Source: an uncultured Bacillales bacterium (lineage in GTDB: Bacteria > Bacillota_I > Bacilli_A > RFN20 > CAG-826). From it: a stretch of DNA of 64,000 nucleotides. Shown here piece after piece: positions 1 through 18,800 of the stretch. Each line of letters starts with the position of its first letter. Position 1 is the first letter of the stretch. The notes beneath the pieces are model-generated. The model was not told where the DNA came from. It saw nothing but the letters and a program-made list of their open reading frames with translations, and did not search any database. The position numbers and the translations under genes were made by a program. The stretch covers positions 1,557 through 65,556 of the forward strand of contig CAMJWS010000001.1 in assembly GCA_946409515.1 (NCBI GenBank). Reading direction: 5' to 3'.

Positions 1-127
1 CATGTTCTTTGCAAGTAATACATATCTTTTTATCGCTGCCAGAATAAACGGCTCTTTCATATGAAAACTTATCTCCATAAAGATTCTTAGCTTCTTTGAT
101 AAATGTTTCAGTTGTTTTTCTTTTCAT
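1..127 (-). CDS. N-terminal 42-aa fragment of a homing-endonuclease-like protein; the rest of the gene lies left of the window.
   Basis: The reverse complement of 1-127 reads MKRKTTETFIKEAKNLYGDKFSYERAVYSGSDKKICITCKEHG, with ATG at 125-127 (cat on plus). This N-terminal pattern (FI.KAK..YGDK..Y....Y........I.C..HG) is typical of phage free-standing homing endonucleases. It continues the nuclease gene series on the same strand. Confidence 0.4.
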   Translation of the reverse strand, partial: MKRKTTETFIKEAKNLYGDKFSYERAVYSGSDKKICITCKEH

Positions 128-130
128 ATT

Positions 131-1372
131 CTAATCTACATATTTCCAATGGTAACCGCCAGCCACACTTCTTTTGCCTTTACAACATTTGGTTATACTT
201 GTTGCATCCTTAAGATTAGCAAATCTAGCTGCATCACCCATAGATTCAAAAACCTCGTTCGTTTCAACGCATAACACCATTTTATTTGCTTTGCTTTTTC
301 CTTTATACTTCAAGCCAAGCCTATGAGCTTCAGTATTAATTGCTCGGCTGGTTCTAGAAGGCATATATTTTTTTACATCAGATCCAATTAAAGGATACTT
401 TTCTTTCAATAATTGAATTTCTTTTTTCGAAAATTTATCGGCACGTTTTGTTGTTGGCTTTTTCTCATATGAACTTTTATCTTTTGCAAAGCAAAAATGC
501 AAACCTGCGGTACCATTTTCTTTTCCGTTACAGCATCTTAGAATCTTGCCTGTGTTTGCTCCTGTGCATTCATGAGCTTCATTTGCGTTTTTGTAGACAG
601 CATCGGTTTCAAAACAATAAATTTTTTCATTTCTTGAAAATGACATTTCTGCAGGTTCCCAATTAATAGAATAATCCCTTTCGTAGCACCAAAAAAATCC
701 ATTGGCTTTTCTTTGTTTTCTATTGCAACAAGAAACAATGCTGCCACCACTAAATCCTAAATTATTCACTACTTGAGTTATGCTTTCAAATTTACGAATA
801 ACATTGAAATCATCATCTATTTGTAAAACAGGAGAAACGAGTTTGTTGTCTTTTGGTTTCCAATTAGTTGAGTAATTTTTCTTGTAACACCAAAAGTATC
901 CTTTGCATGAATGCTTTTCTCCTTCACAACATCTTCTAATCTGAGATGCGTTCCCTTCACCTTTGCCAAATTGTCTCGATGCTTCAGCGGTACTTGGGAA
1001 TTCTTTTAAGACACGAAGAGTTGTTTTGTCAATCTGTAAAACAGGATACCCCAAATGTTCTGCCGAATCACCACCAAGAGTCATATTGTATCCGTTAGAA
1101 TTTGGAAACCCTATATATGAATTGTAATGTGAAATCCAAAACACTTCTCTTTTATTAGCCAATTCTTGTGTTGGAATATTATTCTCTATAATTGAACTTT
1201 CAAAACTATCCCATCCATATTTTTTAATAGCTTTTGCAAAAACGGACGAATGGTTATCAGATGTGTAGCCCAATCCTTTTTTCCATCTCAAAGATGGAAG
1301 CTGTTTGGTTTGACCAATATACACTTTCCCATTCTTTTTATTAGTATGTTTGTAGATTAACCATGTTGTCAT
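131..1372 (-). CDS. GIY-YIG family homing-type endonuclease with four C-terminal NUMOD1/IENR1 DNA-binding repeats.
   Basis: The N-terminus (IYKHTNKKNGKVYIGQT...REVFWI...NMTLGG) fits the GIY-YIG catalytic motifs (GIY..YIG, R, E, N). It is followed by four ~45-aa repeats ending in the CC.GK/R....GY.W.Y signature (IRRCCEGEKHSCKGYFWCY; IVSCCNRKQRKANGFFWCY; ILRCCNGKENGTAGLHFCF; ITKCCKGKRSVAGGYHWKY), which characterises intron-encoded-nuclease repeat / NUMOD1 modules as in I-TevI-like enzymes. Confidence 0.75.
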   Translation of the reverse strand: MTTWLIYKHTNKKNGKVYIGQTKQLPSLRWKKGLGYTSDNHSSVFAKAIKKYGWDSFESSIIENNIPTQELANKREVFWISHYNSYIGFPNSNGYNMTLGGDSAEHLGYPVLQIDKTTLRVLKEFPSTAEASRQFGKGEGNASQIRRCCEGEKHSCKGYFWCYKKNYSTNWKPKDNKLVSPVLQIDDDFNVIRKFESITQVVNNLGFSGGSIVSCCNRKQRKANGFFWCYERDYSINWEPAEMSFSRNEKIYCFETDAVYKNANEAHECTGANTGKILRCCNGKENGTAGLHFCFAKDKSSYEKKPTTKRADKFSKKEIQLLKEKYPLIGSDVKKYMPSRTSRAINTEAHRLGLKYKGKSKANKMVLCVETNEVFESMGDAARFANLKDATSITKCCKGKRSVAGGYHWKYVD

Positions 1373-3399
1373 TTTTTAATATTTGGATTTTTAACACTGC
1401 CCTTATAAAAATGTGATTTATATCTGTGCTCCACAATTGTTCCGTCTTCAAATTGCACATCTATATCATCTGCTTTTCTATATGCAATGCATGTCGCAAC
1501 CATTCCGCATTTTTGCATAATAGATACACCGATGCAACTTGCTCTTTTTTTAATAATATCGTATTGACTAATCCTAGGATGTCCTATAACGCCTTTCCTT
1601 AATGAATCAAGTTTCTTGTGTCTAACAATTGTCCCGTCCTCGAATTCAACATCAATATCATCGCTTCTGCGATAGGCAATTATCGTAGCTTTCAAACCAC
1701 AACTCATCATATAAGTTTCAGGTTCAAACGACCTGAACTCTTCTTTTACAATTTTGCTAGATTTTATCTTTGATAAAAGTGTTTCATTTAAAGTAACATT
1801 TTCGTTAATACCAAGTTCGTGAAGTAATATGTTTAAATACCTCTCTAATTCACTTAATAAATTATCATAATCTCCTGCGTTGGAAGTTGATTCTAAACAA
1901 TAGTTGATATGTTTCGGGCCATTATGAATAACACAACCTTTTTCTAGGAAAGTGTAGATTTTACTAATTTCTTTTGCTTTCGAAATTAGCTCAAATTTCA
2001 TAGTACTTTTCTGAGTTTCTTCTGAGTGCCATTTAACACCATCGTATTCAACGCCGACCTTAAGAGATGGAATCCAAATATCTATTTCAAGATTGCTTTT
2101 TGTCGCTGGATTCTTTAACCAATTAGGTCTGTAGTTGTGGTCAACTTTTTTGAAATATTTTTTAAGAAAATAATAGATTATTTGTTCAGGAAGAGAACCA
2201 CTCAAAATGTTAGGATTAGCAATTGAGCCATTAACAAAACAGGATTTTGTTTTATGTTCAACAATAGTTCCGTCCTCAAATTGAATATCAATATCTTCTG
2301 AATTCCTATATTTAATACAAGTTGCATTCATTCCATTATTCATCAGTTTTGTTTCGCCTTCGCATGAATATGGATCATAGTTTGGATTGCTTATTTCACC
2401 TCTTAAAAACGATGCTTTTGTTCTATGTTCTACTATGGTGCCATCCTCAAATTCAACATCAATATCATCGCTTCTTCTATACGAAACACAAACGGCTTTT
2501 TGTCCGTTGAGCATCTTTCTGCTTTCGCCAAGACAAGAGTATGGATCGTAATTGGGATTTTGTAGTGAACCATTTACAAAATAATCTTTTCGAGTATGTT
2601 CAACTACCGTTCCATCTTCAAATTGAACATCAATGTCATCAGTTTTCCTATATCCGATGCAGGTAGCCTTTTGTCCATTATTCATATCAACTGTTTGACC
2701 CAGACAAGATGACATATTGTGATTTTGAATCAAGCCTCTAATAAATTCATATCTATATCTATGTTTAACGATAGTTCCATCTTCAAATTGGACATCGATA
2801 TCTTTGGCTCCACGGTCAATGATGCATGTAGCTTTCATTCCACAATTTTGAAGAATTGTTCTTCCAATACAGCTAAAGCGATTGTAGTTAGGATTTTTAA
2901 TTCCTCCATTAAGAAAAGTGTTCTTTTGTTTATGGTAAACAATTGTTCCATCTTCAAATTGAACGTCTATATCTACGTTTGTACGGTAAGCAATACATTT
3001 TGCTTTTTGACCATTTTTTTGAGTCACTTCAATATTTAATACAGATGCTTTTGTGGATGAATTACATTTAGGGCTAGTAATATTACCTGACTTAAACTTA
3101 TCTATTGCTCTATGTTCAACGATTGTTCCATCTTCAAACTGGACATCTATATCATAGTAACCGCGATAAGCGATAATTGTTGCTACTTGGCCATTAAACA
3201 TTTTGTTGCTTTTGCCAATCCAAAAATTAGGATTTTTAACTTCTCCTTTTAAAAATTGGTATTTTGTTGTTTTTACAATAGTTCCATCTTCAAACTGGAC
3301 ATCAATGTCTTGTGGTTTTCTATAAGCAACACAAACGGCGTATTGCCCATTATTCATCAACCTTTTGTCTCCAACGTTAACAATCTTTTCGTTCAACAT
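1369..3399 (-). CDS. Vsr-like (PD-(D/E)XK, DUF559-type) endonuclease domain embedded in nine novel ~43-aa tandem repeats (seven N-terminal, two C-terminal).
   Basis: The central segment NYRPNWLKNPATKSNLEIDIWIPSLKVGVEYDGVKWHSEE matches the Vsr/DUF559 core (E.D.(Y/W)IP.L..(A/G)(I/V)EYDG..WH). Nine copies of NGQKATCIAYRxxDDIDVQFEDGTIVEHxxKxxFxxGxIxNPNY flank it; the repeat is not recognised as any known family. The start overlaps the GIY-YIG gene stop by 4 nt (ATGA), consistent with co-transcription. Confidence 0.6.
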   Translation of the reverse strand: MLNEKIVNVGDKRLMNNGQYAVCVAYRKPQDIDVQFEDGTIVKTTKYQFLKGEVKNPNFWIGKSNKMFNGQVATIIAYRGYYDIDVQFEDGTIVEHRAIDKFKSGNITSPKCNSSTKASVLNIEVTQKNGQKAKCIAYRTNVDIDVQFEDGTIVYHKQKNTFLNGGIKNPNYNRFSCIGRTILQNCGMKATCIIDRGAKDIDVQFEDGTIVKHRYRYEFIRGLIQNHNMSSCLGQTVDMNNGQKATCIGYRKTDDIDVQFEDGTVVEHTRKDYFVNGSLQNPNYDPYSCLGESRKMLNGQKAVCVSYRRSDDIDVEFEDGTIVEHRTKASFLRGEISNPNYDPYSCEGETKLMNNGMNATCIKYRNSEDIDIQFEDGTIVEHKTKSCFVNGSIANPNILSGSLPEQIIYYFLKKYFKKVDHNYRPNWLKNPATKSNLEIDIWIPSLKVGVEYDGVKWHSEETQKSTMKFELISKAKEISKIYTFLEKGCVIHNGPKHINYCLESTSNAGDYDNLLSELERYLNILLHELGINENVTLNETLLSKIKSSKIVKEEFRSFEPETYMMSCGLKATIIAYRRSDDIDVEFEDGTIVRHKKLDSLRKGVIGHPRISQYDIIKKRASCIGVSIMQKCGMVATCIAYRKADDIDVQFEDGTIVEHRYKSHFYKGSVKNPNIKK
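1378..3351 (-). repeat. In-frame ~126-129-bp tandem DNA repeats (nine copies) encoding the 43-aa protein repeat; the array is interrupted by the nuclease-domain coding segment (~2210-2430).
   Basis: A recurring nucleotide motif on the plus strand (...atcaatatcatcgcttct...gttccatcttcaaattgaacatcaatatc...) at ~126-bp spacing corresponds to DIDVQFEDGTIV codons. Confidence 0.6.
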
Positions 3400-3536
3400 A
3401 AAAATATTCTAACACGACATTTCTAAAGAAAAAATGGACAAAAAGCCCATTTTCGAGTCCCACCTGTTATGCCAAAATAGTGTCCATCCCCTCTAATTTC
3501 TTAAAAGTGATACACACTAAGTTGGGAAAGTCGAGT

Positions 3537-4250
3537 TTAGCCTTTTTTAAAAATGTCAGGAGTAACTTCGATGTAACGGTGTTCGTCTTTAACACCTTTT
3601 TCGCCCCAATGGAATAAGTACATGTCCATAAATAAAGCACTTTCACGACCCAAATATTGGATTTGGTCACATAAAGTACATATGGTTGCGTACTTATATT
3701 CTTTTGCCATTAAGACTTCATCATAAAAGAATGCATTGAAATCAGCTAATAATGAATTAATTACTGAATCCCATTGAACGAAGTCTAAATCAATTATTGA
3801 TGCTCTATGCTCAATTAATTCCAAAAGGTAAATGACATTGCAAGTGCGTTTATCGAAGTTCTTTATATTTAAATATATAAAATGATGTTTTCCGACAGTT
3901 TGAGTGCCTTTTCGGATTCGATTGGTATAAATCACTATCTTGCCATCGTGATAAGGCGTGATTTTGAATTTGTTATACATATCGTATCCAACTACAACAC
4001 CATGACCGTTATTGGTATACCAGTCAACTAGCTTGTCACCACTACCAGTTCTATCGTTAGGGTCTGCCACGATTAAATAGACACCGTGTGCTTTTCTAAC
4101 GAGAACGCCTTCTTCTTCTAATCTTTTGAGGATTTTGTAGAAAGTTTTAGGCTTACAGGCAGGAAAATGATCCACTAATTCCCTGTGAATATCGAAAACA
4201 CCGCCCTTATTTTGCAGGCAATACTCACGAATTGTTTTAGTATAATTCAT
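3537..4250 (-). CDS. AbiEi-like winged-HTH protein (AbiEi_4 N-terminal domain plus uncharacterised C-terminal domain).
   Basis: The N-terminus (KGGVFDIHRELVDHF...KTFYKILKRLEEEGVLVRKAHGVYLI) follows the AbiEi antitoxin N-domain pattern (G.F...EL........Y..L..L...G.L.R...GVY). No AbiEii nucleotidyltransferase partner is adjacent. Confidence 0.4.
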   Translation of the reverse strand: MNYTKTIREYCLQNKGGVFDIHRELVDHFPACKPKTFYKILKRLEEEGVLVRKAHGVYLIVADPNDRTGSGDKLVDWYTNNGHGVVVGYDMYNKFKITPYHDGKIVIYTNRIRKGTQTVGKHHFIYLNIKNFDKRTCNVIYLLELIEHRASIIDLDFVQWDSVINSLLADFNAFFYDEVLMAKEYKYATICTLCDQIQYLGRESALFMDMYLFHWGEKGVKDEHRYIEVTPDIFKKG

Positions 4251-4371
4251 TAAATGCTTACTCCTTTCTGATTGTCCAAGACGACTTTCACATAAAAATT
4301 ACCGCACTATTTTATTTTTGTCAGCGCTTTTTTTAAATTAATCCGGCATTGCCTATTTTTATAAATAAAAA

Positions 4372-4411
4372 CGACATCCTGTATATTCTACAAAATGTCG
4401 ACTTTTTGTGA
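4372..4411 (-). terminator. Rho-independent terminator downstream of tRNA-fMet.
   Basis: Inverted repeat cgacat...atgtcg. On the minus strand it is followed by TTTTTATTT. Confidence 0.45.
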
Positions 4412-4412
4412 T

Positions 4413-4488
4413 TGGTTGCGGAGGCAGGATTTGAACACTGCGACCTCCAGGTTATGGGCCTGACGAGCTACCACTGCTCTACTCCGCG
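4413..4488 (-). tRNA. tRNA-Met (anticodon CAT), initiator-like.
   Basis: The minus-strand read CGCGGAGTAGAGCAGTGGTAGCTCGTCAGGCCCATAACCTGGAGGTCGCAGTGTTCAAATCCTGCCTCCGCAACCA is near-identical in architecture to E. coli/B. subtilis tRNA-fMet. It has the C1·A72 mismatch, a TTCAAAT T-loop and an encoded CCA. The anticodon loop reads CCCATAA, with C rather than U at position 33. Confidence 0.8.
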
Positions 4489-4519
4489 ATCTCGCCCGGA
4501 GTTTAGTCCAGGCAATTGA

Positions 4520-4696
4520 TTACTTGCGATTTTTACGACGAGCGTTTTCGCTTTTCACTTTTCTCTTAAGAGATTTCTTTAAGAAAAATTCTCTCTTACG
4601 GGCTTCTTGGATAGTGCCAGCTTTATTAACTTGTCTTTTGAATCTACGAAGAGCATCATCTAATGTTTCGTTTTCACGAACTGAAGTCTTTGGCAT
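4520..4696 (-). CDS. rpsU: 30S ribosomal protein S21 (bS21).
   Basis: 58 aa: [58 protein letters not shown], with a GGAGG RBS 8 nt upstream. It falls below the 60-aa cutoff of the ORF track. Confidence 0.9.
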
Positions 4697-4771
4697 GTCT
4701 ATTCACCTCCTTGAAGCTTTTCGCAACGTGTCTATTATTACAAAGTAGTCTAACTATTGCAAGTATTATTA

Positions 4772-5410
4772 TTAAATAATTTTCGCACCACTGGATGTGC
4801 CGATGCGGTTAGCACCCGCTTCAACCATGGCAATAAGGTCTTCGTGTGTACGAACACCACCACTGGCTTTAACGCCCATTTCTGGACCAACAGTTTCTCT
4901 CATGAGTTTCACTGCTTCAACAGTGGCACCACCAGTTGAGAAGCCTGTACTTGTTTTAACAAAGTCAGCGCCAGCTTCTTTAGCGGCTTTACAAGCACGA
5001 ACGATTTCATCGTTACTTAATAAGCATGTTTCAATAATGACTTTTAAGATGATATTGTGTCCAACGGCTTGTTTGATTTCTCTGATTTCTTCTCTGACAT
5101 AATCATCATGGCCAGCTTTTAACATACCGACATTGATAACCATGTCAACCTCATCAGCGCCCTCCTTAACAGTGAGAACTGCTTCTTCCACTTTAGTTTT
5201 GGTTAAGTTCATACCAAGAGGGAAACCAATAACGGTGCAGACTTTAACATCACTATCTTCTAAGCACTTCGCGGCTAATGGGACATAAGCAGGATTAACA
5301 CAAACTGACATAAAGTCAAATTGTTTTGCTTCTTCACAGAGTTTAACAATTTGTTCTGGGGAAGCGTCTTGTTTTAATAAAGTATGATCAATAAGTTTAT
5401 TGTATTGCAT
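4772..5410 (-). CDS. deoC: Deoxyribose-phosphate aldolase.
   Basis: Full-length match to the DeoC pattern ([42 protein letters not shown]). Confidence 0.9.
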
Positions 5411-5502
5411 TGTCTATTTGCTCCTTTGCAAGCATTTTATTATAACAAATATTATCGCAAGAAAAAAGACGAGTTTCCTCGCCTTTATTTTATAAAGAAT
5501 TA

Positions 5503-6873
5503 TTATGCTTTTTGTTTCTTAGCTTTTTCAGCATTAAGCACTCTTAGTTCATCAACCCAGTTGGTATCTTTAACTTCACCTTGAGTTAAGCCATCTTTTT
5601 CCATCGCTGCTTTGATGAGTTCTTTACATCTTCTAACTGATAAGCCAGATCTAACTTTGAAGAGTAAAGGCATTTCAGCATAGTTTGGTCTATGGCCAAC
5701 ATCTTCGACTGGTATGGTTGAATCTTTATAGTCTTCTGGAGATAAGGCTAAGTAGACTTTTAATGTTTTACCAACAAGATAAATCTTTACATATCTCTTA
5801 TCTTTTAATCTAAAGGTTTCACCACCTCTAGATAATCTAGCTTTAACACCATAAGAGAGGATTTCATTCTTTAATTCGTTATAGTTAACCTTGGTTTCAG
5901 TTTCCGCGGTAATAATACGCATAAAGAATGGTTGACGTTTACTTCTATTCCAGCCTTCTTCCTCTTCTTCTGGGATAGGTGCTGGAGCAGGTTTCTCTTC
6001 TTTTTGAAGAGGTTTTGGATTATCAAGTTGAGGCCAAACGGTTCTAGCAACTTTCCAGAAATCAATTGAACCATAAATGGCTTTCTTTTCAGGAACTGGC
6101 TTTGGTTCTGGTTTAGGTTCTTCTTTAACTTCTTCTACAACTGGCTCAGGTTCCTTAACTGGTTCTTCCACCACGACTGGAACTGGTTCTGGTTTAGGTT
6201 CTTCTTTTTGAGCCTCATTACCAACGATAATCACTTTGAATGGTTGGTTCTTAATGAGTTCATCTCTCACGATTCTTCTAATGTATTCATCGTCACCTTC
6301 TTCTTCGTAATATTCTTCACGAATAGCTTTAGAAGCATTGAACGCTAGGAAGGAACGAATAACACACCAGAAATAGAAGATAATGGATAAGAGGAAGTAT
6401 AACGCTGTTAAGGCCACCATAACTAATGCAAGGAGCTTTAACGAGGTCACTTCACCATTCATCATGTGCCAGTACATTCTCGCTCCACTTGCTAAAACGA
6501 CATATATTAAGAAACTAATAAATGATAGAGCAATAGCGTGGCCCATAATGCTGGTGTTCTTTTTATCGTTAATGATAATACCGGCAATTAAGAAGATAAC
6601 CCAGCAAATGAATAAGGCGTACAAGAACGCACTTAGTGCAAAGTAAACAATGCTAGATCCACTAGGATATCTAAATAAGACAAGATCTAGTAAGCCATGT
6701 AAGTGGTATTTCATTACCCCTACGAAGCTAGCTAAATCTGCATCACCGGTTTTCTTAGCAAACAATGCTAAGACGATGAAGCACGCTAGGAACGCCACTG
6801 CTACAAATATAGTAGCGGCAAGTAGTCTTTTAAGACCTTTACTTAATTTTGTTTTTGAGTTTTCCATAATCAA
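5503..6873 (-). CDS. Integral membrane protein with a Pro/Glu/Lys-rich linker and an uncharacterised cytoplasmic C-terminal domain; operonic with the giant surface-protein gene.
   Basis: About five predicted TM helices at the N-terminus, then KEEPKPEPVPVVVEEPVKEPEPVVEEVKEEPKPEPKPV low-complexity linker. It lies 12 nt downstream of the 3999-aa gene on the same strand. Confidence 0.5.
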   Translation of the reverse strand: MIMENSKTKLSKGLKRLLAATIFVAVAFLACFIVLALFAKKTGDADLASFVGVMKYHLHGLLDLVLFRYPSGSSIVYFALSAFLYALFICWVIFLIAGIIINDKKNTSIMGHAIALSFISFLIYVVLASGARMYWHMMNGEVTSLKLLALVMVALTALYFLLSIIFYFWCVIRSFLAFNASKAIREEYYEEEGDDEYIRRIVRDELIKNQPFKVIIVGNEAQKEEPKPEPVPVVVEEPVKEPEPVVEEVKEEPKPEPKPVPEKKAIYGSIDFWKVARTVWPQLDNPKPLQKEEKPAPAPIPEEEEEGWNRSKRQPFFMRIITAETETKVNYNELKNEILSYGVKARLSRGGETFRLKDKRYVKIYLVGKTLKVYLALSPEDYKDSTIPVEDVGHRPNYAEMPLLFKVRSGLSVRRCKELIKAAMEKDGLTQGEVKDTNWVDELRVLNAEKAKKQKA

Positions 6874-6885
6874 TTCTCCTTTCCA

Positions 6886-9800
6886 TTAGTTTTGATAAGG
6901 AATTGTGAATCTAGTTATATAAACCAGATAATCGGAAGCGGCTCCAAAACGAGCCTTAATGGCGCTGACTGATGCTGAATCTTCATCGCCTTCGCAATAA
7001 ACTGTTTTTGCTGCTGGAGTACCACCGATAGCAGATACACCAACAGTTACAATAGTATCAGGTAAGTAAATAGTTGAAAGAGAAGAACAATAGCCAAAAG
7101 CCCATGTGCCAATGGTAGTTACGCCCTTAGGAATTAAAATGGATTTTAAAGACTGGCAACGATAGAACGCATAATCACCAACTGTTGTCACGCCAGTCTT
7201 TGGAAGAGTAATGTTCACGATATTTGCGCAACCATCGAATGCATGAGCAGCAATATCACCACCACCAAGAATTGTGACATCAGTTAAATTTTCTGGGATA
7301 AAGTATGGTTGCGTACTGTATGTGGAAGCGCCAAAGATGGAACCAAAGTGACTACCAGCAATACCAACATTTGTGCCAATAAATGGAAGAACGACTTTTT
7401 CCACATTTCTGCAACCATCATATGCGCCAAAGCCAATAGAAGTGACACTAGTTGGAAGTGCAATTGAACGGAAGGATGTACAGTTTATGAAAGCTTGTTC
7501 ACCAATGAAAGCGACACCATTAGGAATAACGACGTCTTCTAATTGAGAACATCCATAGAAAGATCTACTTCCAATTGAGGTTACACTATTTGGAATCGTA
7601 ATGGAGCTTAAGGATGTACAATTTCCGAAAGCTAATTCGCCAATAGAAGTGATACCTTCAGAAAGTACAATCTCTTCGACATTTGAACAGTAATAGAATG
7701 TTCTATCAGCAATGTATTCACCACCACTAATGACAATGGTCTTAAGTGTTAGAGGAATGCTACTATTGAATAAATTGCTAATAGTAACACTACGTGTGTC
7801 CGTTTCGTTGGCATATTTATATGTTGAAGGTAGTTTAAGATATTCTAATGACGGACAACCAGCTAGTGATTTATCTAACCATTCGATGTTACCGGCAAAT
7901 GTCACTGATTTAACATTATTACAGCCTTCAAATGCCCATTCATATAGTTCATAGTTATCGCCTGTGATGATGATTGTCTCAAGACTTGTTGGAATCTTTG
8001 GAGTGTTATCCTTTGTATAATCAACATCAAAGATATAATTCATACGGCAATATGTTGTATTTGAAGCTGGGTTAGAATCATTGATTGAATAGTTTCTTCT
8101 GCCAACAAATGGAATTGATAGAGTTTCAAGACTTGTACAGCCATCTAACATGCCTTGGCCCATTTCAGTAACGGAATTTGGAACTTCAACGCTAACTAAT
8201 GAAGAACAGCCTAAGAACGCTGCACTACCAATAGAGGTAACAGTGTTAGGAATAGCAATTGCCTCTAAGGAAGAACAATTCTTAAATGCGGCAGTTGGAA
8301 TTGCAGTAAATGATACATTATTTGGAAGTAGAGCATACTTAAGTGAAGTACAACCTTCAAATGCACTATAGCCAATTGAGGTAACGCTATCTGGGATAAC
8401 GATTGATTCTAATGAAGAACAATTGAGGAATGCATTATAAGGAATTGCAGTAAGTGTAGATGGAAGTACAACGTTCTTTAAACCGCCGCAATCTTTGAAA
8501 GCATTATATCCAATGGTCTCAAGTGTTGATGATAGTTTAGCGTATTCTAATGAAGTACAACCTTCAAATGCACTATAGCCAATTGAGGTAACGCTATCTG
8601 GGATAACGATTGATTCTAATGAGACACAACCATAGAACGCATTGTTATCAATAGCGGTAATACCTTGTGGTAAGGCAACTGTTTCTAAGGATGCACAGTT
8701 CCAGAATGTTCGATAATTAATCGTCGACATTGAGCCTGTAAAGATGATTGTTTTAACACTTCCACATCCTTCAAAAGTATTTTTATAGATTTGATCATCA
8801 CCAACAACAGTGATGCTTTCAAGAACAGGAGAAACTCCAGTCCAGAACAAATCTTTGAAAACTTTGTCTGAAAGAGCTTTAGAAGGAACAGTCATATGTT
8901 TGAGATTTGTGCAACCATCAAATGTCCAAATGCTAATATTGGCGTTTGGACAGTCAATGACTACTGATTCAAGCATTGAACAGTTTCTAAAAGAATTTTG
9001 GACAATATTGGATTCAGAAGCGTTTGTAATGATAACGTTTCTTAATGAAGCAGGGATGAAATAATAATAATCATTTTGACCATAGGTGAATTGGTAAACA
9101 CCATCACCTTCATATGTTGCTCCGCTTTCATTATTATGTACATCAAAGCCAAAGATGAAGCCAAACATTCTTTCATTTGTATAGTTGCTACTATTGAAGC
9201 GACCAACGTGTGGAATTGATAATGTTTCTAAAGATGAACATCCTTTAAACGCTCCTTCTCTAATTTGAATAACACTGTTTGGAATATAAGCACTCTTCAA
9301 AGAAGTACAATTTAAGAAGGTATCTGTGGAGATAATCTCAACACCATTTGGAACAACAATAGATTCTAACGCTGTGCATCCACTGAATGTTTCGCTACCA
9401 AGATTAGTAAGAGTCGCTGGAAGAACGATGTTCTTAAGAGCAGTACAATCTTTAAAAGCTTGATTATTGATTTCGGTCACGCCAGATGGAAGAACAATAC
9501 TTTCCATTGAAATACAATTCATGAATGAACCAGCACCAATGGTTGTAATAGGTTCTGGAATTACTACGCCTTTTAAAGAAATACAGTTTGCAAACATACT
9601 TCCGTTAAGAGCGGTAAAGGAAGCATTATTTGGAAGCATGACATAAGTCAATGAACTACAGCCATTGAAAACACCCCACATGCTAGTAACGCTGTTTGGA
9701 ATAACGACACTCACTAATGAGGTACAATTCATGAATGCGCCGTTTCCGATTGTAACCACACTATTTGGTATAGAAATATTTGTTAAAGCGCTGCAATTTG

Positions 9801-12800
9801 CAAAAGCACTACCATTGATACTGGTAACTGTATTTGGAATTGATACAGTTGTTAACGAAGTACAAGAATCAAATGCACATAAACCAATACTTTGAACATT
9901 ATTTGGGAAAGCAACCGATTGTAAAGAGAGACATCCATAGAAGCAATATCTTGGCAAATCAGTAAATTTGTTCATAAATGAAACCGAAACTACTTGATCG
10001 CAATAAGCAAAGTTACCTCCATAAGAATTAAGAGTAATGTTTTCACCAATGACAATATTCTTTACTCTTACATAGCCAAATGCGGAATGATAAATCGTGC
10101 CATTACCGATTAAATAGAATGTATCCAAGTAAGTTGTTGTTGTTTGACTGCCATGGTTGCCTAGAACTATATTCATTGAATTAAAGCTGTATAAGGTATC
10201 AGGCATACCTGGTTCATAAGTTCCACCAAAATATGGAGCGGATAAATATTTTAATGAGTCGCAGTTTCTAAGTGCATCTTCGCCAATAGAAGTGACGCTA
10301 GCAGGGATAACTAGAGATACTATACTAGAACAGCCTTCAAAACCACTTTCGCCAATAGAAGTGACTGATGTTGGAATAGAAACACTAACAAGGCCAGAAC
10401 AGGCTTCGAAAGCGGAATCGCCAATAGAAGTGACACCATGTGGAATGTTCAAAGCGCTTAAAGAAGCACATCCTTCGAAAGCACTATCGCCAATTGTCTT
10501 TAAACTTGTTGGCATACTGATGTTTCTTAACGCTGGGCAATTCGAAAAAGCGGAATCTTCTATTGCAGTGATGCTATCAGGTAAAACAATAGTTCTTAAC
10601 GATGTGAAACCTTCGAAAGTACCTTGAGAAATCTTTGTTAAATTACCTTCAATGATAATGTTTTCAACATGCTTTGCACTATAGCCATGACCTGGTGCTA
10701 CAATCTCAGTAACATTCTTACCAACAATGATGTTTTTAGCATTGTAATTGCACTTCAAAGCACCACTACCTGTAATGTATAAATATTCTAAATGATATAG
10801 ACGTTCCCAAGGTGTTGGTGAGGTTCCAGATTCATAGAGATAAGTAAATGCACTACAATCAATAGGAATAGATAATGACTTGAGCGCCATACAATAACTA
10901 TTAAATTCATAACCAATAGATGTAACACTAGTTGGAATGACTAAAGTTTCAAGCGAATCACAGCTATAGAAAGCACGTTCACCAACTGTAAGAAGGCCAT
11001 TTGGTAAAAGCACCTCTTTTATATTATCAGCATCTTCAAAAGCACTATTGCCTATTTCTTTTGTCCCACCAATAATTTTGACAGATTTAATATTTTGGCA
11101 TCCAGCGAATGCTTTTTCACCGATTTTTTGATCACCAGTAATAACGATATTAGCTAATGTTGATGGTAGTAATCCATTTTGCACATCAGCGCTATTGGCG
11201 TCAAAGAAGTATCCAATGTAACCGTTATTGCCACTACCATCACCTAAGTATGGAACAACTAAAGTTTCAAGAGGTATTGCTTCTTTAGAATAATCGTATA
11301 AATAAACATCATAATCGGTAAAGTTGGTTTCATATGGATTGTTAAATTTTACCCAAAGATTTTTTCCGGCATACCAATCACCAGTATCGCCAATAAGTTC
11401 GCCATAGCCTGCTTCTTCAACAGTTTCTTCACTTAAGTAGAAGCTGTAATTATATAGTTCATCGTACCACGCATCCCATTCTTCCCAATAAGCATAAATG
11501 ACATACCATACTTGTTCAGGATCGTAATTATACTCAGTAGATGAATCATTTTCGTAAGGATTTATAGTAAGAATAAAGTCGTATTGACGTGGGTCGCCTT
11601 GAAGATCATAAGGGCTTGGATAATCATAGCCGCTCCACACGTGGATAAGTAATCTTACACTATCTTTAGGAACTATTTGCCATTTAACACCACCATCTAA
11701 AGAAGCTAAGATGCCTTGGCCAATTGATGTGACACTATTAGGAATAATAAAGGTTTTTAATCCGATGCAGCCTCTAAAGGCATAATCACCAATTGATAAG
11801 AGGCCTTCGTTAAGCGAAACACTGGTGAGGTTTGAACACTTTTCAAAAGCGCTTTCACCAATTGATTTAACATTTTCAGGTACCGCAAATGTTTTTAAAG
11901 CTAAGCAGCTATCAAACGCATGATTACCAATAGAAGCAATACTATCGTTAAGGGCAATGATTTCAATGCTTGAACAATATGCAAAAGCATAATCACCTAA
12001 GGTTTCACCACCGACGATAACAGCTTTCAAAGTCTCTGGCACTGTATAAATGTTGTCTTCAGGATCATTTGAACCAAATAGAGTTCCAATACTTCCTGCT
12101 AAGGAAGGCAAGACTAAAGATTGAATATTAGAAGTACTATCAAGCTTATAGAGTTCGGTTTCATAAGTATCTTCGTTGTAGTAGTAATAATAATCGCCTA
12201 TAGAATAATCATTAATAGATGGGAAATCTCCATAGCCCATATAGTTATCAATATCACTGTAGTCACTATATTCTTTAATCTTAGTCCAGGTGTCATCGCT
12301 AGTCTTACGATAAAGAGTATAAGTAGTATCAGAATCGAGCCACCAGTCACCAACATCACCATCATATTCAGATGGTTCGGAGGATGATTCAGTAATGCTA
12401 TCCGCTAAAAGAACCCACTGAATTTTTCCAGTAAGGATGCCAAAGCCAATATTAGTGACTGATTCTGGAATAGCAAGCGAAGTAAAGGATACGCATTTTT
12501 CAAAAGCATAATCACCAATTGTGGTAACACTATTTGGAATATTAATGCCTTTCAAGCTTTCACAACCACTGAACGCTCTCGCGCCGATAGCTGTTAATGT
12601 ATCTGGAAGGATGACTGTTTCAATGTGTGAGCAGTTAGCGAATGCACCACTCTTTAATTCAGTCACATTAGAAAGAACAACTGTCTTTAATGATGCAGGA
12701 GCTAAATTATTCCATGAACCATGGCTATGTTTGCTACCAGCAGCGATAAAGCCATAACCAAATGAATTAAATGCATCGGCGATATTGCCTTGTGGTAAGC

Positions 12801-15800
12801 CCCATCTATCGCTACTATTCTTAATCCAGAATGTACCAGTAGTTACGTTGATATAATAGTCTCTTTGAGCGGTTTCATATTGGCTTCTATTAGATGTGCC
12901 ATAATCACAAGAAGCAACACTGCCGTCTTCGTTGGTTAAAATGAGTTGACTAATCCATTCGCCATTAATCTTTCTATAGACTGTAGAAATATTAGCATCA
13001 AGATATAAGTCATTATCGTTACCGATACTATTGGATGGTTTTTGACCACTAGATAATTTGCCAGCGTAAACCCTACTACCAATAACTGTAGCGCTACCAC
13101 CGACGAACGGAAGAGTAATGCTATTAAGATTAGATCTAAATTCGACTAATAAATCACCATCATCTGAATTGATAAATAATTTGCCAGATTCAATAGAAGT
13201 TGGGGAAATGACATCATAGAATAATTCGAAACCGACAATTGTGTCTCTTAATTCCCACTTATTGCCTTCTTCATAACGAACCCAGATTTCACCATAGTGT
13301 TCAGCATCAGTGAATACGATAATATCACCAATTTCACCATCAACTGGTAAATCGTGAGTGCTTGTTACTTGAATAATAGCGTATTCGGTTCTTTCTGGAG
13401 AATATTTATCCCATAAGTTACCTTTTCTTGTTAAACCAGTAGAGAAAGCACCTCTACCAATATCTTTAACAGAATCTGGAATGATAATTGATTCTAGAGA
13501 ATCACAACCAGTGAAAGCAAATTCACTGATGTTTTCTAAACCTTCGTTTAAAACGATATATTTAAGTGAAGTACAACCAAAGAACGCTCTTGTGCCTAAA
13601 TCTTTTAAGTTAGAAGGCATCGCAATAGCTTGTAATGATGTACAGCCTTCAAATGTTTGAACTTCAATTTTTTCTAAGTTTTCTGAAAGAGTGAGATATT
13701 TAAGTGAAATACAGCCTTCAAAAGCCATTCTACCAACAGAAGTAACACTATTTGGCATTACAAATGATTCTAAACCTGTGCAGTGATAGAAAGCTTGGAT
13801 ACCAATTGATTTTAAGTTAGCAGGTAAATTGATAGACTTTAATGATGTACAACCTCTAAATGCTAAATCACCAATCTCTGTAATTGTTTCCGCTAAGGCA
13901 ACAATTTTCAATGATTTGAGATCAGCAAACATTTTATTATTAACTTTAGTAATACCATGTCCTAAATAAACATTTTCCAAAGCATCACAATCTAGGAATA
14001 AGTTATCACCAAATTGTTTATCCACGCCGTCTTGGAAGACGATTGATTTAAGATGGCTATTTTCGCGGAATGCTCTGTCACCAATAAATGTAACAGAAGA
14101 TGGAATTACGAATGTTGAGCAACCTGTGTTCGCTAAAGCACCCGCTTCAATTCTTGTTAATCCTTGAGGAAGGTTGAGTTCAGTTAATTGTGTTGTTTGG
14201 TAGAAGCAAGCTCTTCCTAATACTTTTAGTGTGCTTGGAAGTTTAACTATAGTTAATGTGGTACAGAAATGGAATGCTTCTTGGCCGATTTTTGTAACCC
14301 CTTCAGGAATGACTACACTGATAATTTGGTTGCTAGCAAAAGCGAATTCAGGAATTGTGTCCCTATTAGCACCATTACCACCAGTTAAGATGATAGACTT
14401 AACATTACTATGGCCTTCAAAGAGATAATCTAATGAACCATCAGTTCCAGAAAGAGAATCTCTACTCTTGCCTATGAATGGTAATGTCAATTCAATAACA
14501 TCAGAATCTTTAAATACGCCTTTGCCTAAGTATTCCACACTATTAGGAACAACAAAGGATGTCATTTCGGTATCACCGAAAGCATAATCACTAATTTCTC
14601 TAACGTTATTTGGTAAGACGATATTTTCAGCATCACAACCATAGAAAGCATAGGAAGGAATACAGTCTTTATTATCACCATTAGCGCCAGTCAAAATAAT
14701 AGTGTCTAAATGACTTGGAATTCTGCTACTTTGGTTTTCTTTATTATTAGCGCCAAAAATATAGCCTAAGTAGTAATTGGATTCAGGAGCAGGATTGGCT
14801 AAATTCAAAATACTGCCCGCTCCCAACCAAGAATCACCGTAATAAACATAGATCTCACCAGTTTCATAGTTAAAGAAACGGCCACTACTTGGTAATTCTG
14901 TGCCAATTACAACGGCACCACTAGCAAGAATGTTAAGCGTTTCATCATTCTTATCTTCAGTCAAATCGAGCCATTGACCATTAGTAAACTGCCAATAATG
15001 CTTTGTAGCAAGATCAAAATATGTTGTGGTTGTTGGATTGACTGTATTTGGTTCACCGTTACCATAAGAATAAGTTAATGGAGCAATGTAACCAGAATCT
15101 GGACCAATATATGGAAGTGTGATTGATTTCAAATCATCACATTCTGCAAATGCACCAAAGCCAATTGATGATGGATTACCACTGATAATGATTGTTTCAA
15201 TACCATCGCATCCATTCATTGCATTAGCATCAATTGCATAATCGCCTGTAATTGTTACTGTCTTAAGAGATGATGGAAGAGCGGAATCGTTGTCGTCATA
15301 GCTATCACCGCCGAAGACAAATGATAAATATGTAGCATCAGTTACATAATTTGAAAGAACAGTAGCCATTTGTGGATTATCAACAAGATTCATATAGAAA
15401 TTCCATGTATCATTTTGGTATCCATAGAGATTGCCTGTATCGATATCCATCACAACATCACCGTTATCGGCTGAGCCTGTTGGAGCACCATTAACAAGCA
15501 TGCTTGGTGGAAGATTCATTTCTGTTTTATTCCATACACCATTCGCTTTAGCCCAGATATAACCTGATTCTGTATCTAAATATACATTATTTAAAGGATT
15601 TGTTGTGGTTGGTTCACCTGCGCCATAGCAGTAAGCCCAGCTAACTGAAGCCTCTGCGGAACCACCGATAAATGGAGCGGAATATGATTCTAAGGAATCA
15701 CAATCTTCAAAGGCGCCTTTACCAATTGATTTAATAGTGCTTGGCAAAATAATACCTTTTAAAGAAGAACAGTTAGCAAAAGCACCAGCGCCAATTGCTT

Positions 15801-18800
15801 CTAAGCCTTGAGTTGGGGCTACTTTTCTAAATGTAGAGATACCTGGATTAGCGGCACCTTCTTCAATATAGACATAAACAACGTTAGAACAATCTTTAAA
15901 AGCGTCTTGGCCGATTGATTTGACGTTACTTGGAATAACAACTGATGTTAAACCAGTACAGCCTTCAAACGCGCTGTTTCCGATTGATTTAACGGTATGT
16001 GGAAGAGTGAATGAAGTGATTCCTGTTTGATCTTTGAATACATCATCACCAATACCAATAATTAATTGATCGTTATAGAATTCTGGGATGACGATATCGC
16101 CACTTGTGATAGAGCAAGCTGTAATGATGCCATCTTCGACAACGAATTGTCCCCATCTAGCGGTTAATGTTATGTCTTTTGTCACAACATCTTTAGAGAA
16201 GTCCCAACGTGTGCCCTCACTTGTGTACCAACCTTGGAAGAAATAATCATCTTTAGTTGGGGCTGTTGGATTAACAATGGTAAAGCCTTCTAAAGCTTCT
16301 TCATATGAAGCAACTGCAGTACCACCATCACTATCAAATGTGACTGTATATTTATTAGGGGAATAATGTAAATTACCTTCTGGATTCCAGACTAAATTAC
16401 CTTCACCATCATCAGTTAAAACATAGTAGTTCCATGTATCTAAATCGATATATGAATCGCCTTCAATACCTGCAACAGCAGCAAGAGTTTCATCTTGTGG
16501 AGTGACTGGATCATCTTCAACCGCACGTGGGTCACGGTGTCCTGTCCTCACAGATGTACCGTCTTTACCATTAGTGACTGTGAATGTATCAACATGTGGA
16601 TTTGCGGTTGTGCTATCACTATAAGTGATTTCATAAACATCGATTAAATCGTTAGTTTCTTTTAAAGTTACGCTGACAATGGAAACACCATCTTGACCAG
16701 CATCACCTTTAAATGAGCCTTTATCAGTCCAACCGTCATCGGCTTTAACATAGAGTTTCCATGTTTCGACGTCGATATAGTTATCTCCGACATTAGCTAA
16801 GGTTTCATTTGTTGGTGCACCTGTACCAACAATAATCTTATTTCCATCTTGGCCATTAGTGACTGTAAATGTTGATGTTGTGGTATCAGAGTATGTAATT
16901 GTGTAGGTATCCACTAAGCCTTCAGTGCCTGTTTTGACAACACTTGAAATGGAGACACCATTAGTACCGTTTTGGCCTGCAAAGTTACCTTTATGGACCC
17001 AAACACCATTTTCTTTCGCGTAGTAGTCCCATGTTGTGGTATTGATATATGAATCGCCATTATTACCTAAAGTATTTTCTGGTGCAGTTGTGCCATATCT
17101 TAAAGAAGCACCAATTGCACCACCACCAGCTGGTTCACCCCAGCCAGTATCAGTCATTGTGTAATAATTACCTGTATCTAAATCGATATATGTGTCACCA
17201 ACATTACCTGGAACGTTACCAGTTGTTGGATCACCATGACCAACGTTAACAGAAGCACCTTGTGCGCCTGCTGCGCCATCATCACCTTTAATATTACCAG
17301 CGAGGTTCCATGTACCATTTTCTTTAACATAGAAATCCCAGTTAGCTAAGTTGATGTAGGAATCGCCATTTTTACCTGTTGTAGCAGCTGGTTCACCATT
17401 ACCAGTTAAAACTGATGTAGCGGCAGCGCCTTCACCAATCTTTTCCCAGCCGTTAGTTTCATCGTATGTATAGAGATAGCCTGTATCTAAGTCAATATAG
17501 GTATCACCTTGTTTACCTTCGACACTATTTGTTGTTGGATCACCATGGTTAAGGCTGACAGAAGCACCAGCAGGACCTTGTGGACCTGTAGCGTTAACGC
17601 CAGTATCGGTTTCGCCGACATACCAGTGACCATTTGCACCAATATGTGGAATGGCAAAATTACTTGTGGAGTCTGGTGTGCCCCATTCACCGTTATCGCC
17701 CATGTGATACACGTCGCCTGTACTTAAATCAATATAAGTATCGCCCGCGCTACCTGGAACGTTACCTGTGGTTGGATCACCACTACCAGTGAGGATGGAA
17801 GTACCATCTTGACCAGCTTGACCTTGTGGGCCAGTAGCGGCAACACCGGTATCGGTATCACCAATAAACCAGTTACCATTAGCACCGATATGAGGTAAAG
17901 CAAAATTACTATTGGCTTCTGGAGCGCCCCATTCGCCGTTATCGCCCATGTGATAGATATCACCTGTGCTTAAATCAATATATGTATCGCCAGGATTACC
18001 TGTAGCGCCACTTGTGGTTGGATCACCATTGCCCGCACAAACGGAAGTACCATTATCACCAGCTTGACCAGCAATATTGCCAATCTTGACCCAAGCACCA
18101 CTATCCATGACATAGTAGTCCCAGTTCAATAAGTTAATATATGAATCACCATTTTGTCCTAAGTCAGCGGCAGGGACACCTTCACCAGTGTGTACACTAT
18201 AGCCAGCTTGACCAGTAGGGCCTTGTGGACCTTGAGCGTGAGTGCCTGTATCAACACCATCGACAAACCAGTTACCATTTTCACCAACTGTGATTTCTGG
18301 TGTACGGCCATCTGTGCCTGGAATGCCTTGACCTTGGGCACCGTTTTCACCATTTGTGACCAAGAATGTTGATGTTGTATTGTCAGTGTATGTAATTGTA
18401 TAAACGTCTATTAGGCCTTGAGATTCGGTCTTTTCAACGGAAACAATACCACGGCCTTCTGGACCTTGTGGGCCTTCTGGACCTTGAGGGCCTTGTGGGC
18501 CAACAGCATCTAAATCTGTGACTGTACCGTTAATGACCCATTTACCGTTTTCGATGGTAATTGTTGGAGTAACACCATCCGCGCCAGGGAAACCTTGAGC
18601 GCCAGGTTGACCATCCGAACCATTTGTAACGATGAAGATCGAACTTGTTCCATCTGTGTAATAGATTGTATATTCATCGATTAGACCATATGTGTTAGTC
18701 TTTTCGACTTTATCAATTGATTTTAGAGTCTGGCCCTCTTGACCTTCTCCTCCTGGTATTTGTGAGTTTGGAAGATCTTTTTTAAGAGCATGAACCGCAA

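Follow-up and report, generated by a model that had tools for sequence, protein, structure and literature searches.

Three described systems are among the closest to the protein considered here. I-Bth0305I (PDB 3R3P) is an intron-encoded endonuclease with a C-terminal nuclease and two NUMOD/helix-turn-helix (HTH) motifs, and the paper describing it defines the EDxHD family by a Vsr-like fold bearing the residues E170, D196, H213 and D222 (PMC3239194). A "large unrecognized outgroup of EDxHD/Vsr" homing endonuclease genes, located in phage introns of groups I and II, encodes proteins with three to five CapR-, DUF4379- or DUF723-like domains of about 60 amino acids (aa) (PMC12350094). The TnsD/TniQ selectors of Tn7-like transposons have an N-terminal TniQ domain and a long, variable C-terminal region that is thought to recognise the attachment site; the 2023 survey of these selectors describes the C-terminal regions of TnsD as multiple HTH domains and does not mention SH3, Tudor or beta-barrel domains (PMC10293859). 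We analysed a gene on the minus strand of a 64,000-nucleotide stretch of DNA from an uncultured Bacillales bacterium (contig CAMJWS010000001.1, positions 1,557 to 65,556; the whole stretch is called the window hereafter). We consider, with a probability of roughly 60%, that its product is a free-standing homing-type (selfish) endonuclease belonging to the Vsr/EDxHD outgroup, and that it is targeted by an array of Tudor/SH3-like barrels located on both sides of the nuclease core.

The gene is a single open reading frame (ORF) running from ATG to stop, and the 676-aa protein that it encodes is made up of seven repeat units, a nuclease core of about 170 aa, and two more repeat units. The motif DID[VI][QE]FEDGT[IV]V occurs in nine copies, at aa 31, 83, 143, 200, 255, 312, 369, 581 and 645, and the non-repeat segment (aa ~399-565) has seven units on its N-terminal side and two on its C-terminal side. 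A profile constructed from the nine units recovered each of them with per-unit E values of 1e-25 to 1e-29, and it gave no further match when the 64-kb window was translated in all six frames. No database record identical to the 676-aa protein was found. The gene is divided as follows:

1369..3399, minus strand: whole gene, seven predicted Tudor/SH3-like units, Vsr/EDxHD-like core and two units; supported by the ORF, the mapping of units and core, and the ratio of nonsynonymous to synonymous substitution rates (dN/dS)
3220..3357, minus strand: core of unit 1, aa 15-60; repeat-profile match, and the exact point at which DNA homology to the related cassette L001 (see below) begins
3064..3201, minus strand: core of unit 2, aa 67-112; repeat-profile match
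2884..3021, minus strand: core of unit 3, aa 127-172; repeat-profile match
2713..2850, minus strand: core of unit 4, aa 184-229; repeat-profile match
2548..2685, minus strand: core of unit 5, aa 239-284; modelled, with beta1, beta2, beta3, the FEDG hairpin, beta4 and a 3-10 helix
2377..2514, minus strand: core of unit 6, aa 296-341; repeat-profile match, modelled together with unit 5
2206..2343, minus strand: core of unit 7, aa 353-398; repeat-profile match
1705..2205, minus strand: nuclease core, aa 399-565, predicted topology alpha-beta-beta-beta-alpha-beta; carries S402, E405, E438, D440, E451, Y452, D453, G454, H458, K468 and E486
1570..1707, minus strand: core of unit 8, aa 565-610; repeat-profile match
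1378..1515, minus strand: core of unit 9, aa 629-674; repeat-profile match

A first-pass annotation of this DNA had reported nine copies of a repeat around a Vsr-like nuclease, and the motif and profile mapping bears out this layout. It had also given a period of 43 aa and DNA repeats of about 126 bp, and these values need correction. The units of the protein recur every 52-64 aa, with a conserved block of 43-47 aa; the modal period, calculated from 1,071 units in 120 homologues, is 57 aa, which corresponds to about 171 bp of DNA. The units are 38-64% identical to one another in protein and 49-67% identical in DNA, the longest exact DNA word that they have in common is 26 nt, and Tandem Repeats Finder reported no repeats when run on positions 1..8000. 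The units are old and diverged, and are not DNA-level repeats.

The identity of the nuclease core was derived from an alignment of 96 cores from homologues, from a profile search with 38 cores, and from structure prediction. The 38-core profile had as its top match among PDB sequences I-Bth0305I (3R3P, "mobile intron protein"; E 0.0014), and the alignment placed I-E451-Y-D453-G...H458...K468 of the query over I-E-V-N208-G...H213...K of I-Bth0305I. The best solved relatives of the core are I-Bth0305I, NGO0050 and Vsr, and PHROG families called "homing endonuclease" or "HNH endonuclease" also match it. The AlphaFold2 model of the core is confident (predicted local distance difference test, pLDDT, 89.7) and has the topology alpha-beta-beta-beta-alpha-beta, in which beta2 carries D440, beta3 carries E451 and D453, and the helix that follows carries K468. 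The core fold, the acidic residue on beta2, the triad on beta3 and a basic residue, here a Lys relocated to the helix, are those of the PD-(D/E)XK superfamily, and D440, E451-Y-D453 and K468 are conserved in 92-96 of the 96 cores. S402, D440, E451, G454 and K468 are invariant, whereas Y452, E438, D453, E486 and H458 are kept in 86-98% of the cores (E486 in 87 of the 96). All of the family-conserved residues are present in the query. The Vsr-like assignment of the first-pass annotation was thus upheld by both the sequence profile and the predicted fold, and the conserved acidic, His and Lys residues are all in place.

The query has E405, D440 and H458 of the EDxHD motif, and the position aligned near D222 of I-Bth0305I is S465; the invariant K468 stands three residues after it. 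Because only half of the family's cores keep the first Glu of the motif, the last Asp has given way to another residue, and K468 is invariant, we place the core as an outgroup within the Vsr/EDxHD branch of PD-(D/E)XK, as judged from profile and model, and not as a strict EDxHD member. The query also differs from I-Bth0305I in being free-standing and in having an internal core flanked by 7+2 predicted Tudor-like barrels; furthermore, its family does not conserve the final Asp of EDxHD and has added the invariant K468 and the conserved E486.

The fold of the unit was predicted with an AlphaFold2 model of units 5 and 6 (pLDDT 85). Its predicted template modelling score of 0.53 suggests two domains of which the mutual orientation is uncertain. 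Each modelled unit begins with beta1 (the "hGExxxM" linker), followed by beta2 (xATCIxYR), beta3 (DIDVQF), a tight FEDG hairpin and beta4 (TIVEH), after which come a short helix (xxF) and a GxIxNPN tail. The five-strand barrel, the 3-10 helix ahead of the last strand and the superposition on known members are those of SH3-like small beta-barrels, and the unit is predicted to be a barrel of the Tudor/KOW kind. The first-pass annotation had named a known structural, non-DNA-binding beta-repeat family as an outcome that would count against DNA recognition. The predicted fold is indeed of a known, SH3/Tudor/KOW-like class; however, some families of this class bind nucleic acid and others protein, and hence the outcome is not decisive by itself.

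At the sequence level the unit stands apart from named families. None of the Pfam and NCBIfam models covers it; the matches obtained were summed sub-threshold pieces (Tudor_3, CBM_26, DUF6763, T4 Gp30.7 and ribosomal L14) without a significant stretch. The Pfam CapR, DUF723 and DUF4379 models did not match the query at E<=1, nor did the NUMOD1-4 and IENR models match it, in agreement with the first-pass annotation, which had not recognised the repeat as NUMOD, IENR or any named DNA-binding repeat. The 676-aa protein had no match among PDB sequences, and a unit profile matched only the KDM4B double Tudor there, without significance; no significant sequence relationship was seen with other Tudor, KOW and SH3 barrels (Spt5 KOW, SMN/TDRD3 Tudor, KDM4B double Tudor, the C-terminal Tudor of UvrD/PcrA, and Hpy99I). 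The unit consensus has no CxxC pair and no aromatic cage, its only conserved aromatic residues being Y12, F22 and F36, of which F22 and F36 are probably core residues. We found no paper on the unit in the literature, including searches for DUF8278, DUF6763, DUF5780, Gp30.7, and "homing endonuclease" with "SH3-like". The only curated model to reach its gathering score on any family member was PF06919 (Phage_T4_Gp30_7), which matched one unit of the homologue P0020 over profile positions 3-53 (E 1.4e-12; 47.8 bits against a cutoff of 27 bits); the query itself scored 24.3 bits, below threshold. Gp30.7, a family of unknown function spanning 118 positions, has one unit and no nuclease, and its N-terminal ~50 residues point to a single-unit phage relative of the repeat.

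One candidate, that the unit is a zinc-less relative of DUF4379/CapR, was rejected at the sequence level, as hhalign gave a probability of 0.08% for 200 units against 10 DUF4379 units. A Foldseek search of BFVD, which had raised this candidate, returned proteins called "CapR homology", "treble clef" and "zinc-ribbon" that match the unit fold (E 1e-3 to 1e-2, TM ~0.3); these viral proteins may simply contain barrel units as well.

The family is large. A word-indexed search gave more than 848 homologues, all of them unnamed or "hypothetical", from sources that include metagenome-assembled genomes (MAGs) of Lachnospiraceae, Muribaculaceae and Bacteroidaceae, and an exhaustive hidden Markov model (HMM) search of 1.84 billion cluster representatives yielded 3,242 proteins at E<=1e-3, with 1,119 at E<=1e-30. 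Scanning with the single protein returned three distant loci from genomes and one weak locus from viral sequences. The arrays of the 247 proteins that we retrieved have 4-14 units, far more than known tandem Tudor/KOW sets. A nuclease core is present in 126 of the 247, and in 117 of these 126 the units flank it on both sides. No core was detected in 87 proteins, some of which are fragments on short contigs and several of which lie on contigs of 12-128 kb, and the remaining 34 have other segments.

In some proteins the same core, or the same array, has a different partner. In a Saccharofermentans MAG (L010:5287-6990) the core is combined with five DUF4379 treble-clef zinc fingers, which lie on both sides of it as the barrels do in the query, and with a C-terminal NUMOD-like tail; in a Candidatus Nanosyncoccus MAG (L009:3045-4772) it is joined to tandem HTH/NUMOD1-like modules. 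The cores of these two proteins were identified by the family HMM with E values of ~1e-26 to 1e-30. The homologues P0079 and P0104 have the barrel array together with DUF4379 and an I-HmuI NUMOD-like domain. The query thus resembles the described outgroup in joining several modules of ~60 aa to a Vsr-like nuclease, in having thousands of unannotated members, and in that its core family includes proteins with DUF4379 arrays (L010, P0079, P0101 and P0104). It differs from that outgroup in that its modules are predicted to be zinc-less Tudor/SH3-like barrels, not treble-clef fingers, and are placed on both sides of the core.

The units were also found on other proteins. One or two N-terminal units are present on phage "HNH endonuclease" proteins (gp204 and gp207 of Bacillus phage Evoli, and a protein of Vibrio phage helene 12B3), with an AP2 domain in Evoli gp207 and similar IMG/VR ORFs, and a 222-kb IMG/VR contig encodes a protein with six N-terminal units, the core and five C-terminal units. 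Among the 150 best representatives, eight (P0224, P0135, P0162, P0152, P0202, P0217, P0226 and P0240) have an N-terminal TniQ domain followed by 5-10 query-type units that make up the C-terminal 300-600 aa, the region thought to recognise the attachment site in TnsD/TniQ selectors. On the three contigs examined (L023:4252-6480 for P0224, L024:4541-7549 for P0135 and L025:8552-11170 for P0162) the gene for such a protein closes a TnsA-TnsB-TnsC or TnsA-TnsB-TnsC-TniQ operon of a Tn7-like transposon. The query, unlike these selectors, has neither a TniQ domain nor transposase neighbours. Finally, repeat-only proteins of ~460-526 aa with about eight units are encoded by one to three tandem paralogues (L026:3871-8569, L027:4363-5943 and L028:1741-3321) directly after a gene for a 451-453-aa DEAD/ResIII helicase and upstream of one for a 1,951-aa NlpC/P60 and phage-lysozyme protein, a context that looks like an integrative and conjugative element (ICE). 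From the domain context, the array would occupy the expected nucleic-acid-targeting position in every one of these architectures. The idea of a modular nucleic-acid recognition array, put forward in the first-pass annotation, is backed by the DUF4379 and HTH fusions of the core and by the C-terminal arrays of the TniQ proteins.

Comparison with orthologues showed how the units are maintained. The dN/dS ratio was 0.05-0.09 against three orthologues at 75-85% identity, and the gene is under strong purifying selection. Amino acid identity to orthologues was 85-87% in the repeat cores and 84% in the nuclease, and the linkers were the loosest parts. Each query unit is 0.67-0.98 identical to its positional counterpart in an orthologue and 0.35-0.70 identical to other units, and this one-to-one register holds in orthologues down to 75% identity, with part of it still present at 55%. 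Since the most similar units are those at the same position, the units are individually maintained and not homogenised, a pattern in keeping with an asymmetric target and speaking against frequent recombination between repeats. The earlier suggestion that the repeats make the gene recombinogenic finds no support, given this positional orthology and the low DNA identity between units. The number of units does vary, as P0005, P0008 and P0009 have a tenth one. In another lineage, P0111-P0119 differ from P0047 by a clean in-frame deletion that took out three units together with the core's catalytic half (aa ~317-565 of P0047) and are otherwise identical to it; they lie on numerous contigs, which reach 183 kb in length, and the allele is either decayed or a deliberately nuclease-dead variant. 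We found no TALE-like hypervariable pair when per-position entropy among paralogous units was compared with conservation among orthologues; the variable unit positions, -3 to 0, 6, 11, 14-16, 29-35, 37-38, 40 and 42, are scattered across beta1, the beta2-beta3 loop and the 3-10 helix, and also drift between orthologues.

The array gene is followed by a second endonuclease gene:

131..1372, minus strand: 413-aa GIY-YIG homing endonuclease with NUMOD1 and three I-HmuI-NUMOD-like domains; matches to Pfam, NCBIfam TIGR01453, PHROG and PADLOC "homing endonuclease"

The stop codon of the array gene overlaps the start codon of this downstream gene (ATGA), and it is the GIY-YIG protein, not the array protein, that the NUMOD1 and I-HmuI NUMOD-like models match. 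At locus L001 the pair is kept, between a MiaB-like gene and adhE, and DNA homology is confined to positions 123..3357 of the window (85% over 3,241 bp), the flanks being unrelated. At L002 homology is confined to the array gene (1373..3360), again with unrelated flanks, and the loci L002-L005 have the array gene without its GIY-YIG partner. With the two further contexts provided by L003 to L005, the island of homology is limited to the gene or the pair in at least four unrelated contexts. No empty-site allele was recovered. The picture of gene-sized islands in unrelated flanks, phage copies, decayed alleles and a partner that is itself a homing endonuclease resembles that of free-standing homing-type nuclease genes; it is also compatible with horizontally moving defence genes.

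Taken as a homing-type endonuclease, the protein would work as follows. The barrels would form an extended, asymmetric DNA-binding array that positions the core at a long and specific site on the DNA, in the role played by NUMOD/HTH modules or treble-clef zinc-finger arrays in the sister proteins. The different units would probably contact different parts of the site, because each unit has its own conserved identity. Phosphodiester hydrolysis would be metal-dependent and carried out by D440 and E451, with D453, H458 and K468, and the gene would spread through repair of the break, alone or with the co-transcribed GIY-YIG endonuclease gene. One could envisage a broader role, in which the ~57-aa unit is an array-forming DNA-recognition module that serves mobile elements as an interchangeable targeting device, each unit reading a small segment of a long, asymmetric target; this we put forward only tentatively. 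By analogy, such arrays may be likened to those of transcription activator-like effectors (TALEs) and zinc fingers, which are also tandem small modules with a conserved scaffold, variable surface positions and a varying number of units, although the fold is unrelated and no hypervariable "code" positions were found in the units.

Several observations weigh against a homing-type endonuclease guided by a DNA-binding array. The array on the N-terminal side is charge-neutral (pI 7.0), and every unit bears a conserved acidic DxD..ED motif, which, however, matches the Tudor hairpin and may for that reason be structural. The first Glu of EDxHD (E405) is Glu in 48 and Gln in 48 of the 96 cores, and the last Asp is found in 23 of the 96 and is S465 in the query. 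The query copy is free-standing and does not appear to lie in an intron or intein, and close orthologues occupy non-homologous sites, unlike classical homing into one cognate site. A defence role is possible, given the defence island around one orthologue and the AbiEi gene that adjoins the query.

The defence alternative holds that the protein is an anti-phage or anti-plasmid nuclease, restriction-like or an abortive-infection effector, in which the array senses foreign DNA or protein and the core degrades DNA. One support for it is P0003, an 84% identical orthologue at L002:4315-9934, which directly follows McrB, McrC and two DNA-methylase genes; an nSTAND3/Schlafen-like helicase and a MazG-like gene are nearby and a Dcm methylase lies in the island, and these surroundings are those of a typical defence island. 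Selfish nucleases, however, often accumulate in defence islands. In the window, the array gene follows an AbiEi-type antitoxin/regulator gene (3537..4250, minus strand; PADLOC PDLC02251, E 1e-25) without a gene for the AbiEii toxin downstream of it, and the array-nuclease/GIY-YIG cassette occupies the position expected for AbiEii. Insertion of the cassette could have pushed the toxin gene aside or taken its place, or AbiEi may be just an orphan. On the other hand, none of the families in the PADLOC-DB v2 models matches the array protein, no partner gene is kept across contexts, and the sole recurrent neighbour is the GIY-YIG homing endonuclease. Homologous modules occur on phage-encoded homing endonucleases and transposon target selectors, and the unit lacks the aromatic cage that would suggest the reading of modified ligands. 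We consider a defence function unlikely.

A somewhat more doubtful explanation is that the barrels bind a protein or ligand, or oligomerise, and thereby tether the nuclease, TniQ or helicase to another macromolecule, leaving the core alone to contact DNA. The array's lack of basic character and the conserved acidic patch of each unit are in line with such a function, as is the position of the repeat-only proteins next to a DEAD/ResIII helicase in ICE-like contexts. In CRISPR-associated transposons, moreover, TniQ reaches its target by protein contacts with Cascade. Against this stand the exact positions of the array, which are those of DNA-binding arrays (DUF4379 and HTH/NUMOD) on the same core, and its presence on three kinds of enzyme that act at DNA sites, namely nucleases, TniQ/TnsD selectors and phage homing endonucleases. 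For units that are individually conserved and not interchangeable, an asymmetric polymer is also a more fitting target than one protein partner. Least probable by far is a domesticated or decaying remnant, catalytically dead and kept for DNA binding alone or being lost: the in-frame deletion alleles without the catalytic half (P0111-P0119 versus P0047) and the roughly one-third of sampled family proteins without a detectable core speak for it, but the query retains every family-invariant core residue, and both the low dN/dS and a nuclease as conserved as the repeats argue against it.

The catalytic family and the modular logic of the homing-type endonuclease proposed here are already known. 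What appears not to have been described before is the module, its placement on both sides of the core and its reuse on the target selectors of Tn7-like transposons, and the association of Tudor/SH3-like arrays with nucleases and transposon selectors is new. The EDxHD/Vsr outgroup of homing endonucleases gains a second, unrelated family of accessory modules. Should the array be a sequence-specific reader of DNA, it would constitute a new modular scaffold for targeting DNA, compact, all-beta and free of zinc, naturally coupled to two effectors of biotechnological relevance, a site-specific nuclease and a Tn7-like target selector (protein-guided insertion of large cargo). If the units are indeed recognition modules, the composition of an array would predict its target, arrays could be redesigned as with zinc fingers or TALEs, and some 3,200 unannotated protein clusters from gut and rumen-type metagenomes would be explained. 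The TniQ fusions offer a computational route to a recognition code, by comparing array sequence with attachment-site sequence across elements.

A promoter scan of positions 1..4800 gave no excess over the shuffled expectation, and the promoter and terminator scans found no informative signal in the spacer at 3400-3536. Farther upstream of the array gene, beyond AbiEi, lie rpsU (4520..4696) and deoC (4772..5410), and between deoC and a very long ORF is a 456-aa ORF (5503..6873, minus strand) with several hydrophobic segments and a low-complexity stretch rich in Pro, Glu and Lys (EPKPEPVPVVVEEPVKEPEP...). The long ORF (6886..18885, minus strand) encodes 3,999 aa, probably a giant surface protein; a segment resembling a signal or anchor lies at its N terminus, and it also has collagen-like GPQGPQGPEGPQG triplets, modules of the form "GDSYINL..W..Y" that recur, and BspA-type leucine-rich repeats by the dozen. 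Leucine-rich repeat sequence similar to that of the 3,999-aa ORF is present at the IMG/VR locus L022.

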